From positions 1,741,289-1,805,288 of the forward strand of contig OZ242379.1 of assembly GCA_965209225.1 (NCBI GenBank): a stretch of 64,000 bases of DNA. The letters run 5' to 3'. Under the pieces are notes generated by a model, which ran no database searches, was not told the DNA's origin, and worked only from the letters and a program-made list of their open reading frames with translations. Positions 44,309 to 51,472 of the stretch are shown in pieces. Position 1 is the first letter of the stretch, and each line of letters opens with the position of its first letter. The position numbers and the translations under genes were made by a program. This DNA comes from Thermodesulfobacteriota bacterium. GTDB lineage: Bacteria > Desulfobacterota_D > UBA1144 > Nemesobacterales > Nemesobacteraceae.

Positions 44309-44697
44309 GCAAGGAGACTATCAGACTTCCTTCTGGTCATCCGAAGATTTTCGACACGATGAAAATAGAGATTCTCCGTATGGAAAATGGGGAATCGGAG
44401 CTTTCCATGCCGTTTGTTGAGGAATATACGCAGCACTACGGGATGCTCCACGGCGGGACCATTTTCACCTTGGCGGACGCGGCCTGCGGAGTTGCTGTTG
44501 CCAGTGTCGCAAGAGAGGAAAAAAAGTTTCTTACTTCCCAGATGAATATAAATTACCTTGAACCAGTGAGGGAGGGCGTTACGGTCTCTCGCGCCCGGGT
44601 GCTAAGGCAGGGAAGAATAATGCCGGTTGAGTGCGAGGTCTTGAATTCCGGTGTCTGCGTGGCGAAGGCTACCGCTATTTACACTCTGGTCGACTGA
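44305..44697 (+). CDS. PaaI-family hotdog-fold thioesterase
   Basis: MSKETIRLPSGHP…HYGMLHGGTIFTLADAACGVA… Its ATG overlaps the MFS stop (ATGA). Confidence 0.8.
   Translation: MSKETIRLPSGHPKIFDTMKIEILRMENGESELSMPFVEEYTQHYGMLHGGTIFTLADAACGVAVASVAREEKKFLTSQMNINYLEPVREGVTVSRARVLRQGRIMPVECEVLNSGVCVAKATAIYTLVD
44600..44697 (+). repeat. direct repeat copy A: last 32 codons plus stop of the thioesterase gene
   Basis: 82/98 nt identical, ungapped, to 51375-51472. 11 of the 16 mismatches fall on third codon positions. Confidence 0.7.
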
Positions 44698-44881
44698 TCT
44701 TCTTTTTTGCGACCGAGCTGGCTAACACAAACATAAATCATTACTGGTACATAACATGCGGATTTCGCACAGAGTCTCATCCGTGCGCAGGTGCGTCTAA
44801 ATTAGTGGAGAAATGATGAAGTTTAGTGTAAAATGGACATATGTTGTTTGAAGACCGAAACCTAACAATCGGGAGAGGCAG

Positions 44882-46501
44882 ATGAAAGAGATGTTTGGTT
44901 TTAGCCCAATTTCACTTAGGAAATTAACACTTGCGGATTCCATAGCCGCTTATATTGCCGGCGCGTTGCTTCTTGTTATACTCATAATGATTATTCTTTC
45001 ATCCTGTGAAAGCGATACGCAAGGTGATTCGGCCTTGCAGAGTGAGTGTACCTGGTCGGGAACTGAAGAATCTGAACTGTATAGTGCTGCGGAGTCAACG
45101 GAAAGTGTGCATCTCTGCGGTGACGGAGGGGCCGACAGACTGACCGGCGGTGCGGGAGACGATATTCTTGACGGAGGGCTTGGCAGCGATCAGCTCTCAG
45201 GCGGCACGGGGGACGATACGATTTTAGGCGGTCAGGGCAACGACAACTTAACCGGCGGTGCCGGCGCTGACTTTATTGACGGAGGCGAGGGAGACGATGA
45301 CGGCGATACAGTAAGCTATATGAATTCGCCTGCGGGTGTGATTGTTGATCTTTCTGATGATTTGCCTGAGAAGGGTGGGGATGCGGAAGGGGACGTGATT
45401 AAAATGGAATACAAGGAAGAAAACGGTCAGCAGTACAAAGTAAGCACCATTGAAGATATTGTCGGTTCTAACCATGATGATCATCTGATCGGCGATGATG
45501 AGGATAACTATCTGAACGGCCTTCTGGGTGCCGACACGCTTGACGGCCGCAGAGCGGACTTTGAGGTTGATATTGCTGACTACAGGGTTTCTTTCTACCC
45601 ACCTAATTTCCAGGGGCCTCGTTGCCAGACGTGCTATGAAGAACGTGACTTTGATGTTAATCCACGACCTCCACGCGGCGCCGCGTGCGTAAAGGTCAAT
45701 GCTTCTGACGACATGCCGGAGCGCTGCGGCCATGCCGAGGGTGATACCTTAATTAATCTAGAGGGTTTTATCGGCGGGCCCGGAAGGGACTTGATTATAG
45801 GTGACGAGAAGAGGAACATGTTTGGAGGCTGGGGAAGTGAAGACCTGATTTACGGAGGCGCTGCCGATGATACCTTTATCATACTAAGCGGCCTTATGGA
45901 CAGACTTGAAGAGACCTGTTCGCCCCAGGGGTTCTGTCCGTTCCGGGGACTCAGGCAGGGTCGGAGCTGGATAAGGGATTACGATGGAGGGCTTGAGCAC
46001 GTTCATCTAAAGTGCTTTGATCTTGGGGATGAAGATGACTTCAGCCCCACTTACCATGTCGCGAGTTGCGATACACCGCGCGAGAGGTGTACGGTGACTT
46101 CAACGGGCAAAACATTGCCTGAGGTCAAATGCGGTGCCCCCTTGCGACCGGAAGAAGTGCAGGAGTGCGGCTACTGTCCTCCTCATCCTAGTGGTACGCG
46201 TTACGGGGAGGTGGCTGAAGATTGCAGCAAGGACCTTATAGTTATATTTCCCGCCGAAACACCGCTTCCAGGTCCGCCGGATGTTGTTAAAGCTCCTGAG
46301 GATTTTACAAACAGAGAGCAATGGATCAGGTTTACTCCTTATGGAAAGTTGGCCCAGGTAAACGACATGCCTCTTGAAAAGCGAGTGGAGACCCTTGACA
46401 ACACAATAGTGTTTACCCCGAAGGCTGACTCGTTTAACGCCTGCCCGCTGCTTCAGCTCCTTGACGGAAGCAGAGGCTTCAGGGGAGGTGGAGGGAATTA
46501 G
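44882..46501 (+). CDS. RTX (hemolysin-type Ca2+-binding nonapeptide) repeat protein, probable lipoprotein/secreted
   Basis: N-terminal TM/lipobox-like …ILSSC. Tandem GGxGxDxL repeats (GGAGDDILDGGLGSDQLSGGTGDDTILGGQGNDNLTGGAGADFIDGGEGDD). Cys-rich C-terminal half. Confidence 0.7.
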   Translation: MKEMFGFSPISLRKLTLADSIAAYIAGALLLVILIMIILSSCESDTQGDSALQSECTWSGTEESELYSAAESTESVHLCGDGGADRLTGGAGDDILDGGLGSDQLSGGTGDDTILGGQGNDNLTGGAGADFIDGGEGDDDGDTVSYMNSPAGVIVDLSDDLPEKGGDAEGDVIKMEYKEENGQQYKVSTIEDIVGSNHDDHLIGDDEDNYLNGLLGADTLDGRRADFEVDIADYRVSFYPPNFQGPRCQTCYEERDFDVNPRPPRGAACVKVNASDDMPERCGHAEGDTLINLEGFIGGPGRDLIIGDEKRNMFGGWGSEDLIYGGAADDTFIILSGLMDRLEETCSPQGFCPFRGLRQGRSWIRDYDGGLEHVHLKCFDLGDEDDFSPTYHVASCDTPRERCTVTSTGKTLPEVKCGAPLRPEEVQECGYCPPHPSGTRYGEVAEDCSKDLIVIFPAETPLPGPPDVVKAPEDFTNREQWIRFTPYGKLAQVNDMPLEKRVETLDNTIVFTPKADSFNACPLLQLLDGSRGFRGGGGN

Positions 46502-46793
46502 CTGGGTTTATGGGGCGCAGTTGTCCTGACGCCGTAAATAGCGATCAGTCAGGTGTTTTCCGCTTCTGCGCCACTCCACTCTTCCCAGACGGATGCTGTT
46601 CTTTCTTCCGATCAAGCATGTTGCTTTCTGGCTGTTTTCTTTATTCGGAATTTTGAGGTAGCCAAGAAAGTATTCGAGATTGAGCTTGGTTTTTTTATTC
46701 GAAAAACCTCGGTCAATAAGAAATTCTCGACGGAACTGCTTCAGTATTTGCTGGTTTAATGTATAATACTTGCGAATGAGGGGTTAATATCTG

Positions 46794-50420: not shown

Positions 50421-50792
50421 AAAATTTAGATAGAAAAATTCTGTACATACTCCCTCAGAGTTCCTGATTTGTCAGCCAGTGTTTTTCTCCGGAAATCAGG
50501 CAAATTTCCCGCAGAAACAGCTCTTCGTACACGCTTTTCGTTCTCCGTGACGAACTCTGAAAATCGTACGGAAGAACTCGGACATCTATGCCGAAAGAAT
50601 CTCATCCTTGACATAATCACCAAGAATTCCTCTCTATCTGATTTGCTTAACACCCTAAGAGTATTATCAAATCCACACCGATTATATATATGCTTAATAA
50701 ATGGTTCGTAGTCAAATCCAAAGCGGAAGTCTTTGCCCAACATTGTCAGGTGATAACAAGTTAGATGTTGCCGAAGTGAGACTGGATAAGCG

Positions 50793-51400
50793 CTAGACTG
50801 AAGCCGTTTCTGCTCTCAGTATTCTTTTTCCAAGCCCGAGTGCTGTGTAGCCGTTTTCTTCGGCCCAAGCGACTTCTTTTTCCGAGAAACATCCTTCGGG
50901 ATCTATATAGACGTTTAGGGCTTTGCCAAGGAATGGATGTAATCCACAAGCAGTTTGTCCTGGTTTTCATAAAATATTATTTTCGCCTCGCTTTGCTCTC
51001 TCACTTCAAAGGAACCTTGGAAGTTGACTGGATCGGAAACCGGGGGCGGCATTACCCTTCCGCATTGCTTTGTCGATTCAAGGGCTATTTTGTCCCATCT
51101 GTCCACCTTGGCGGTTGATCTTACTTGGGTCCTTTCGGAAACTACCGGGGAAAATCCTGATACGCCCAGTTGCGTTGCCTGACTTATTCGGTATTATCCC
51201 GTCCATCCTGTTTCCCTTGAGAATTGACTGGAAGAGATTAAGCTCCAGTTCAGGTTCTGTTTTCAACAGGCGGATTTCGTGAACCTGGAGGGCGATGGTT
51301 TGAGCAGAGAGATCCGTTATTGTGCCCTCATACTCTGTGGATTCAGTATCAAAAACGGTTATGCGGTCCCCGGGTACTAAAGCAGGGGGAAATAATGCCT
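50793..51400 (-). pseudogene. rsmE: 16S rRNA (uracil1498-N3)-methyltransferase RsmE, decayed (multiple frameshifts, 5' end lost)
   Basis: Three minus-strand frame pieces match RsmE in order: …ITVFDTESTEYEGTITDL…ELELNLFQSILKGNRMDGII…; …RWDKIALESTKQCGRVMPPPVSDPVNF…; …IDPEGCFSEKEVAWAEENGYTALGLGKRILRAETASV*. The N-terminal about 45 codons are missing. Confidence 0.65.
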
Positions 51401-51472
51401 GTTGAATGCGAGGTTCTGAATTCGGGCGTCTGCCTGGCGAAGGCCACTGCCATTTACACTCTGGTTGACTGA
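51375..51472 (+). repeat. direct repeat copy B: orphan, stop-containing copy of the thioesterase 3' end
   Basis: Encodes …LKQGEIMPVECEVLNSGVCLAKATAIYTLVD* (versus LRQGRIMPVECEVLNSGVCVAKATAIYTLVD* in the intact gene), but no upstream gene body. Abuts the rsmE remnant and the SNF2 gene's 3' end. Confidence 0.7.

Follow-up and report, generated by a model that had tools for sequence, protein, structure and literature searches.

An orphan copy of the 3' end of a thioesterase gene, located within the 64,000-nt stretch of DNA analysed here (the window), is probably (about two chances in three) the scar of a non-homologous break-and-join event that brought together two alternative versions of the same variable hotspot, each coming from a different strain of Candidatus Dadabacteria. 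The left version would comprise a complete thioesterase gene, 5.9 kb of cargo and an rsmE gene deprived of codons 1 to ~36. That on the right would consist of the terminal 104 nt of a thioesterase gene from a lineage resembling L016 (one of the 36 related Candidatus Dadabacteria loci, labelled with L-numbers, that formed the comparison set), followed by a defence island. A single junction would be new, at the pentanucleotide CCCGG, where sequence from inside rsmE meets sequence from inside the thioesterase gene; homologous exchange of the ordinary kind, between diverged strains, could explain the remainder. The features of the region are listed in Table 1.

Table 1. Features of the thioesterase locus in the window. 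P1 and P2 designate the two layouts of the hotspot, in which the thioesterase gene is followed by rsmE (P1) or by a defence island (P2).
Feature	Position	Strand	Remarks
MFS transporter gene	43133-44308	+	PF07690, E 8.8e-47
4HBT/hot-dog thioesterase gene	44305-44697	+	Intact, 130 aa; PF03061 4HBT, E 1.4e-15
Repeat copy A	44594-44697	+	nt 290-393 of the intact thioesterase gene
P1 spacer, thioesterase side	44698-44783		First ~40 nt similar to those after the stop in cargo-bearing alleles L003, L009, L018 and L019
5.9-kb cargo	44784-50718		Homology to L038 starts at 44784
RTX protein	44882-46501	+	In cargo
Small lapA-like gene remnant	46599-46695		In cargo
Animal haem peroxidase	46794-48572	+	In cargo
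Cache-domain protein	49113-50420	-	In cargo
105-aa ORF	50426-50743	-	In cargo; no Pfam match
P1 spacer, rsmE side	50719-50760		~30 nt beside the rsmE stop common to L009, L019 and L026
rsmE pseudogene	50761-51373	-	PF04452, E 9e-14; PUA_4 match begins at profile position 17
Novel joint, 5-nt microhomology CCCGG	51369-51373		Common to the rsmE antisense and thioesterase sense strands
Repeat copy B	51369-51472	+	Orphan; thioesterase nt 290-393, own TGA; L016-like allele, ~5 private substitutions
P2 spacer, thioesterase stop to SNF2 stop	51473-51519		Homologous to the L016 spacer
SWIM/SNF2 helicase	51520-54858	-	First P2 island gene; PF00176, E 2.7e-62; PADLOC DpdE 9.8e-180, ZorD 8.7e-110
PDC-M38 pair	55108-56862	-	PADLOC PDC-M38B 1.4e-36, PDC-M38A 1.1e-82; Pfam
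DUF3226 protein	55108-55761	-	Member of the PDC-M38 pair
AAA_15/21 ATPase	55765-56862	-	Member of the PDC-M38 pair
Type III CRISPR-Cas module	56855-63318	-	CARF-HEPN Csx1/Csm6, RAMP, Csm2, Cas10, GSU0054 family

The left end of the region is conventional. The MFS gene precedes the thioesterase gene in all 36 related loci, with gene order maintained and amino acid identities of 85-94%, and the ATG of the thioesterase gene overlaps its stop codon. The thioesterase is full length and shares 81-92% amino acid identity with its counterparts in relatives, its PF03061 match pointing to the 4HBT/hot-dog superfamily, the level at which the assignment is made.

The repeat itself had been described in the first-pass annotation as two 98-nt segments (44600-44697 and 51375-51472) identical at 82 positions without gaps, with 11 of the 16 differences at third codon positions. 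Recomputation returned the same values, the third-position count being confirmed in the thioesterase frame (with three further differences at first and two at second positions), and the similarity was found to reach 6 nt further to the left. Copies A and B are therefore 88/104 identical (84.6%), gap-free, and the limits of the repeat are sharp, as the 30-nt blocks that adjoin it on either side agree at just 5-11 positions. A match of at least 88/104 has a chance probability of ~1.7e-34 per placement and ~7e-25 when every placement in the window is counted, and a chance origin of the repeat is excluded. The longest run of identity is 14 nt and the first difference lies 8 nt from the joint. Copy B does end in its own TGA (51470-51472), as had been stated, and its 33-residue translation differs from that of copy A at three residues. 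The two modules share nothing else within the window, their flanks and contents being unrelated. A decayed thioesterase paralogue was sought on the upstream side of copy B, but none of the frames gave any similarity there; the minus strand at that place is occupied by rsmE.

The comparison set revealed a variable hotspot of Candidatus Dadabacteria in the interval between the thioesterase gene and rsmE, with contents differing among strains. In 28 of the 36 loci the thioesterase gene is followed by a convergent rsmE (P1), the two being separated by variable cargo that ranges from 6 nt to 9.4 kb and has unrelated ORFs. In L016 and L018 it is followed by a defence island (P2) with an SNF2/DpdE-like helicase, PDC-M38 and CRISPR-Cas genes; the helicase gene comes directly after the thioesterase gene in L016, and on the L018 chromosome the island separates the thioesterase gene from the conserved backbone and an intact rsmE, which lie ~22.8 kb away. 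In L030, rsmE is followed by a backbone of HEM4/uroporphyrin-methylase, CbiA and UvrB. The helicase encoded in the window has 84-89% amino acid identity to its L016 and L018 counterparts, both of which directly follow thioesterase genes. From inside copy B onward the window is collinear with L016 up to position 61610, the limit of the L016 locus, and the island continues past the end of the window. The whole arrangement is best read as a P1 version (thioesterase, cargo and truncated rsmE) fused to a P2 version (thioesterase 3' end and defence island). A second thioesterase 3' end was present in none of the 36 related loci, and no displaced thioesterase end was found at the far side of the L018 island. 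Truncated thioesterase (P0014/15/17/18) and RsmE (P0131-P0133) products, considered as possible independent junctions, turned out to be frameshift-split ORFs in ordinary P1 loci.

In having conserved flanks and differing contents, the locus resembles the variable and defence-island hotspots located between core genes and, as in these, its large versions are rich in defence functions (SNF2/DpdE-like, PDC-M38, CARF-HEPN and type III CRISPR-Cas, to which L018 adds Cas3 and Cas4-Cas1). Unlike in the known hotspots, however, a fragment of a flanking gene has been left inside, recording how two versions were combined, and the RTX-peroxidase-Cache part is non-defensive and derives from another chromosomal locus.

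The evidence for that origin of the cargo is its collinearity with positions 6521-13798 of L038, at 78-86% nucleotide identity, minus the L038 segment 8576-9890 that carries a lapA-like gene and lipA. In L038, L039 and L041 the cassette lies within the series aroA-cmk-rpsA-sppA-RTX-lapA-lipA-peroxidase, meaning that the cargo is a relocated piece of the sppA-RTX-lipA-peroxidase-Cache neighbourhood. A search through peroxidase homologues for a parental P1 allele combining the same cargo with an intact rsmE retrieved none, and found instead the canonical home of the cargo at sppA-lipA.

The breakpoint lies at the right edge of the rsmE remnant. This remnant keeps the native TAA stop, lacks codons 1 to ~36 and carries three frameshifting indels (+7, -10 and -7 nt in the nucleotide alignment); in tblastn comparisons with the RsmE proteins of 21 relatives, the matches begin at residue 36-39. 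Its median divergence is 19.7% vs 16.9% among intact alleles, a modest excess. The apparent identity of 42-51%, which had raised the idea of a distant origin, was an artefact of two frame changes, the remnant being at the nucleotide level a normal allele that differs by 12.9% from that of L005. No intact RsmE from the source contig appeared among the matches listed for 20 RsmE clusters. The gene is cut at codon ~37 precisely where copy B begins: homology to rsmE stops at 51373 and homology to the thioesterase gene begins at 51369. The window reads GCGGTCCCCGG to the left and GTACTAAAG to the right of the joint, and the parental types are GCGGTCCCCGGCyCC in rsmE and GCCCGGGTACTAAGG in the thioesterase gene, both containing CCCGG. 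Because it connects two gene interiors at a 5-nt microhomology, the boundary is most readily understood as an illegitimate, non-homologous joint and not as an att site. The joint is known from one genome and a single assembly, and a junction-specific pattern scan of JGI metagenome contigs gave no match. Annotation should treat both the rsmE fragments and the 50-aa ORF at 51320-51472 as pseudogene remnants.

The divergence between the copies offers a view of their ancestry. Between genomes, intact thioesterase 3' ends show a median of 16 differences in the 104 nt, 71% of them at third positions, which is what is seen between copies A and B (16 differences, 11 of them third-position). The divergence of the copies is accordingly of the ordinary allelic type seen between lineages, and on this basis the first-pass view of two diverged coding ends, as opposed to a recent duplication, holds. 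The alleles closest to copy A are those of L004, L005, L006 and L012, with 11 differences each, and rare variants are common to copy B and L016. About 10 of the 16 differences between the copies are polymorphisms common to relatives, and ~5 changes are private to copy B, accounting for all three amino acid differences. Along the window the closest relative alternates (L005, L016, L005, L012 and L016), a mosaic ancestry indicating that homologous exchange between diverged strains is frequent. A sliding identity analysis along the window yielded no single homologous crossover assignable to the break-and-join event and pointed to neither side as the resident one, the mosaic being too patchy.

Other origins can be envisaged for such a structure. 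The first-pass annotation had proposed an old and degraded integrative element targeting the 3' end of the gene, with copy A as attL, copy B as attR and a replacement thioesterase end supplied by the element. The locus is indeed reminiscent of islands and prophages of this kind, in which direct repeats of a gene 3' end are formed, the upstream copy completing the gene and the downstream one remaining as an orphan. The repeats are diverged coding sequence and bound a segment that L016 does not have, the window containing ~6.8 kb extra in relation to that locus. To this extent the idea of a bounded insertion stands, and the contents attributed to it (RTX protein, animal heme peroxidase, Cache protein and decayed rsmE) were all confirmed. 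However, rsmE is the conserved neighbour of the thioesterase gene and lies here in its normal orientation, and therefore the bounded segment corresponds to an ordinary chromosomal neighbourhood. Its right 0.6 kb is rsmE, in the native order and convergent orientation of the 28 P1 loci. That gene is cut off right where the repeat starts, and what copy B has at its left edge is a truncated gene and not the end of an element. The expectation that some relatives would have the thioesterase gene directly followed by the SNF2 gene was borne out in L016, but relatives also keep the gene order without a second repeat copy, which largely contradicts the proposal. The absence of an integrase was corroborated: no recombinase remnant was detected among the ORFs (RTX, peroxidase, Cache and rsmE), and neither the 105-aa ORF nor six-frame translations of the three gaps gave a Pfam match at E<=1. 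Likewise, no tRNA or Rfam family was found near the locus, and promoter and terminator scans returned nothing relevant. With no identical core longer than 14 nt, no recurrence of the duplication in the 36 loci or at the far end of the L018 island, P1-type spacers and a cargo from another chromosomal neighbourhood, the locus departs from the known 3'-end-targeting elements, as does the presence of a truncated housekeeping gene in the bounded DNA. An integrative element is thus very improbable.

The repeat may also be part of a larger duplicated unit. An in-place tandem duplication extending from thioesterase nt 290 to rsmE codon ~37, generated by unequal or microhomology-mediated exchange between sister chromosomes, would fuse the end of a segment to its own start at a few shared bases, which is exactly the geometry of the observed joint. 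If an intact rsmE lay beyond the island, as in L018, both gene ends would be duplicated, and the allele exchange evident along the window could have later replaced the contents of one copy from another strain. Yet at least two events would be needed. A tandem duplication consists of two adjacent, initially identical copies, whereas here nothing beyond the 104 nt is common to them, the flanks are unrelated, the cargo is wholly different and the divergence is that normally seen between lineages. Given such unrelated contents and allele-level divergence, duplication alone cannot explain the two copies. Furthermore, the differences between them start 8 nt from the joint, and replacement of copy B would therefore require a crossover at no more than 7 nt from it, leaving replacement of the first copy as the only feasible course. 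On balance this origin is considered unlikely. Even less probable is the integration of a circular DNA (thioesterase 3' end, cargo and rsmE without its 5' end, closed at CCCGG) by a Campbell-type single crossover in the 104-nt homology of a P2-type genome. One integration step would suffice for the structure seen here, and the bounded unit, 44594-51368 or equivalently 44698-51472, is just such a circle opened in the repeat. Against it, a longest identical run of 14 nt in 85% identical DNA makes a poor RecA substrate, the 16 variable sites do not display the reciprocal-hybrid pattern, and the unit carries no replication or transfer function. Finally, since the source is a metagenome-assembled genome, the contig could be a chimera of two co-occurring strains, one P1 and the other P2; in one related bin, the P2 contig L016 is accompanied by another contig with a thioesterase gene (L012), meaning that differing configurations do co-occur, and the junction was seen nowhere else in the metagenome scan. 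Strain chimeras, however, switch in shared sequence, and the joint links the non-homologous rsmE codon 37 and thioesterase nt 290, with 5 nt in common. In addition, both remnants are decayed as real non-functional DNA would be, with private substitutions and with 7- and 10-nt indels that are not homopolymer errors. The probability of an assembly artefact is accordingly judged very small.

Returning to the break-and-join origin, its most economical route would be a single import from another strain, with a homology anchor on one side and a microhomology joint on the other, that is, homology-facilitated illegitimate recombination (HFIR). The import would have added a second version of the hotspot instead of replacing the first, and the two truncated gene pieces, being useless, would afterwards have begun to decay. 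We infer this route from the structure described above. HFIR is RecA-dependent and relies on one homologous anchor, with joints formed at microhomologies of 3-10 bp (PMC6382021); it was studied by de Vries & Wackernagel 2002, Prudhomme et al. 2002 and Meier & Wackernagel 2003, as outlined in the summary of these works given in PMC6382021. The locus resembles such events in the diverged donor (~15%), suggested by the lineage-like, third-position-biased divergence of the copies and by the L016 rare variants in copy B, in the single novel joint at a short, G+C-rich microhomology present in both parental types (5 nt, within the 3-10 bp range), and in the lack of a site-specific recombinase, with homologous sequence available on either side as a potential anchor. 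It differs in being a fossil in a natural genome, HFIR being known from experiments, and in its outcome: recipient DNA is usually replaced in HFIR, but the present event left 104 nt of the anchor region in duplicate and two versions stacked, which is compatible with the process without being its textbook form. More tentatively, and with a low probability, the orphan gene end may be the fossil of an additive stacking event, in which an entire alternative version of a defence-island hotspot was added beside the resident one by one-sided homologous recombination, with closure at a microhomology.

In a practical sense, the locus illustrates that direct repeats of a gene 3' end are insufficient to call an integrative element, and that the neighbourhood in relatives must be checked. 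It also provides, in an uncultivated and mostly sponge-associated host lineage, a clean case from nature in which variable regions, a type III CRISPR-Cas defence island among them, may have been reshuffled between strains without dedicated mobility genes; the illegitimate joint is resolved to the base, and the two gene fragments under decay could serve to date the event. If additive stacking were true and general, defence islands would be able to grow without recombinases, by accretion of the versions carried by other strains, and the truncated copies of flanking core genes found inside islands would be datable markers of each accretion.

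The duplicated thioesterase 3' end in the window is the scar of a recombination that joined two versions of a variable hotspot, and not an integrative element that brought a replacement gene end. The ungapped identity reported in the first-pass annotation (82/98, positions 44600-44697 against 51375-51472) was reproduced, and the repeat starts six bases further to the left, giving 88/104 identical positions between the end of the intact gene (copy A) and the orphan end (copy B). Outside both repeat ends only background similarity is seen (5-11 matches per 30 nt), and chance matches this good over all placements are expected at ~7e-25; the repeat is not due to chance. 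In the thioesterase frame, third codon positions account for 11 of the 16 differences, as noted earlier, first positions for 3 and second positions for 2; 3/33 residues differ.

Features of the thioesterase locus and its surroundings (window coordinates; L016 and L038 are loci of relatives)
Feature	Position	Strand	Description
tmRNA gene	10332-10679		tag peptide AEPINALAA
Two-gene pair	38875-39574		122 aa + 108 aa; second XRE-type, weak PADLOC PDC-M64C matches
KAP-family P-loop NTPase	41467-42750		PADLOC PDC-S20, E 5.7e-117
Intact thioesterase CDS	44305-44697		130 aa; PF03061 4HBT, E 1.4e-15
Repeat copy A	44594-44697		3' end of intact thioesterase
Cargo cassette	44784-50718		RTX, animal haem peroxidase, Cache; collinear with L038 6521-13798 at 78-86%
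rsmE TAA stop	50761-50763		retained
rsmE pseudogene remnant		minus	abuts copy B on left; PF04452, E 9e-14
Repeat copy B	51369-51472		orphan thioesterase end (nt 290-393) with own TGA
Defence island	51520-64000		runs off window end; common to L016 at 88-97%
PDC-M38 A/B pair			next after SNF2 gene; AAA_15/21 ATPase + DUF3226
CARF-HEPN Csx1/Csm6			after PDC-M38 pair
Type III CRISPR-Cas effector module			RAMP, Csm2, Cas10, GSU0054 family; off window end

A thioesterase scan of the genome collection returned 29 loci, all from Candidatus Dadabacteria or Thermodesulfobacteriota MAGs (a few bins being otherwise labelled), which together with 5 metagenome loci and 2 obtained via RsmE look-ups gave a set of 36. 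In 28/36 the order is MFS, thioesterase and convergent rsmE (P1), with a conserved backbone beyond rsmE and a thioesterase-rsmE gap that is 6 nt (L013, L027) or 48 nt (L001) in some genomes and in others holds unrelated inserts, 0.6 to 9.4 kb long. The largest insert (L011 2654-12004) carries, as judged by eye, ORFs for a histidine-kinase-type ATPase, two cytosine-5 DNA methyltransferases and a Vsr-type endonuclease, which would make it a cargo of restriction-modification or defence type at the same hotspot. In a second arrangement (P2; L016, L018), the SNF2 helicase directly follows the thioesterase, without the intervening segment, and precedes the window's next genes, as the suggested comparison with related genomes confirmed for L016. 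Collinearity between this locus and the window spans 51382-61610 (88-97% identity), beginning within copy B, and the SWIM-SNF2 protein matches DpdE/ZorD models. In L018, the island separates the thioesterase from an intact, convergent rsmE (P0068) and the conserved backbone, at a distance of ~22.8 kb (the ENA and NCBI records, equal in length, being assumed to share coordinates); P2 is thus P1 carrying a large island. The window accordingly consists of P1 (thioesterase copy A, the cargo and rsmE minus its 5' end) joined to P2 (thioesterase nt 290-393 plus the defence island). No second thioesterase end was found in the 36 related loci, nor at the far side of the L018 island. Immediately after the L012 thioesterase, an ORF (6404-6709, minus strand) at the very end of the contig resembles by eye the C-terminal part of TnpB/IS605-family proteins. 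One MAG bin holds both L012 and L016, so two strains of differing configuration probably co-occur.

The joint itself lies where rsmE homology stops (51373) and thioesterase homology starts (51369). The overlapping CCCGG is common to both parental types (rsmE antisense strand GCGGTCCCCGGC, thioesterase GCCCGGGTAC), and copy B therefore begins on its left at a breakpoint, where the interiors of two opposite-strand genes are joined at a 5-nt microhomology. The profile of the N-terminal PUA domain matches the window RsmE only from position 17, alignments of RsmE from 21 relatives begin only at residue 36-39, and at the nucleotide level similarity is entirely lost upstream of codon ~37. The otherwise normal allele carries three indels (+7, -10 and -7 nt), and the remnant is a real pseudogene because such multi-base changes are unlike homopolymer errors. 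A scan of the JGI metagenome collection did not find the junction, and no intact RsmE from the source contig, from which other proteins are indexed, was found among the matches listed in 20 RsmE clusters. Frameshift-split rsmE genes occur in L021 (10482-11059), L026 (12212-12894), L031 (9722-10456; Illumina/SPAdes contig, 26x coverage) and L032 (2534-3158), reflecting either a dispensable, decaying gene in parts of the clade or assembly errors.

The cargo lies in a spacer of P1 type, with ends like those seen in other cargo-bearing alleles, and neither cargo boundary shows repeats. Relative to L038 it has a 1.3-kb deletion removing a small lapA-like gene and lipA. In L038, L039 and L041 the cassette has a housekeeping neighbourhood (aroA, cmk, rpsA, sppA, RTX, lapA-like, lipA, peroxidase), followed in L038 by Cache and CN-hydrolase genes; this canonical home is another chromosomal locus, and the cargo therefore represents a piece of it that was either relocated or imported. 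Besides the cassette gene, the source contig encodes a paralogous peroxidase (P0202, 47% identity). Exact internal repeats in the peroxidase gene (47871-47945; 33 nt at 42-nt spacing, doubling DEDGNDIRITD) and the Cache gene (49240-49281; 21-nt tandem, doubling EMEEESS) are recent in-frame duplications.

The earlier description of the repeats as diverged coding ends is correct, and their divergence is allelic. Between genomes, intact thioesterase genes show a median of 16 differences over their last 104 nt, with 71% falling at third positions; the A/B comparison likewise has 16, 11 at third positions. About 10 of the 16 sites are polymorphic among relatives, and two rare variants of copy B recur in L016. 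Some 5 changes are private to copy B and account for all three amino-acid differences, as expected from decay once the fragment became useless. The rsmE remnant differs by 12.9% from its closest allele (L005) and by a median of 19.7% from intact alleles, which differ by 16.9% among themselves. The excess of change is thus small and alike in the two remnants, which fits a single event of moderate age.

Sliding identity over window 28600-44700 and 51300-61600 showed the closest relative changing within a few kb, from L005 to L016, back to L005 (here up to 97.7% identity), then L012 and, right of the joint, L016; homologous exchange between Dadabacteria lineages is therefore common. The KAP NTPase lies in a 2.2-kb insertion (40884-43044) upstream of the MFS gene, present among relatives only in L012 (92-97% identical), so a second variable spot adjoins the locus. 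Further upstream, the two-gene pair, in a stretch of falling identity to relatives, is a possible toxin-antitoxin module. Window 11270-11619 is briefly matched by the variable region downstream of the L023 thioesterase.

Nothing in the region points to a site-specific element with its own replacement 3' end, as first proposed: the longest identical A/B run is 14 nt, the repeat end does not recur in the 36 related loci, and neither tRNA nor Rfam families were found in the region. The reported absence of an integrase was borne out, all sizeable ORFs of the bounded segment being accounted for and Pfam giving no match in a 105-aa ORF or in six-frame translations of the three gaps. A circle that integrated through one crossover within the 104-nt homology is disfavoured, that homology being poor and the copies showing no hybrid pattern. 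An assembly chimera is unlikely because the positions linked at the joint are non-homologous and both remnants show genuine decay. Tandem duplication followed by allele replacement needs more steps than a single import.

One illegitimate joint, on a background of homologous exchange, explains the structure. The favoured course is a single import, of either P1 or P2, in which homology would have served as the anchor at one end while the CCCGG microhomology closed the other. Such a pattern defines homology-facilitated illegitimate recombination (HFIR), whose joints occur at 3-10 bp (PMC6382021), a range that includes the 5-nt joint of the window. The locus is a tidy natural example of an already known process.
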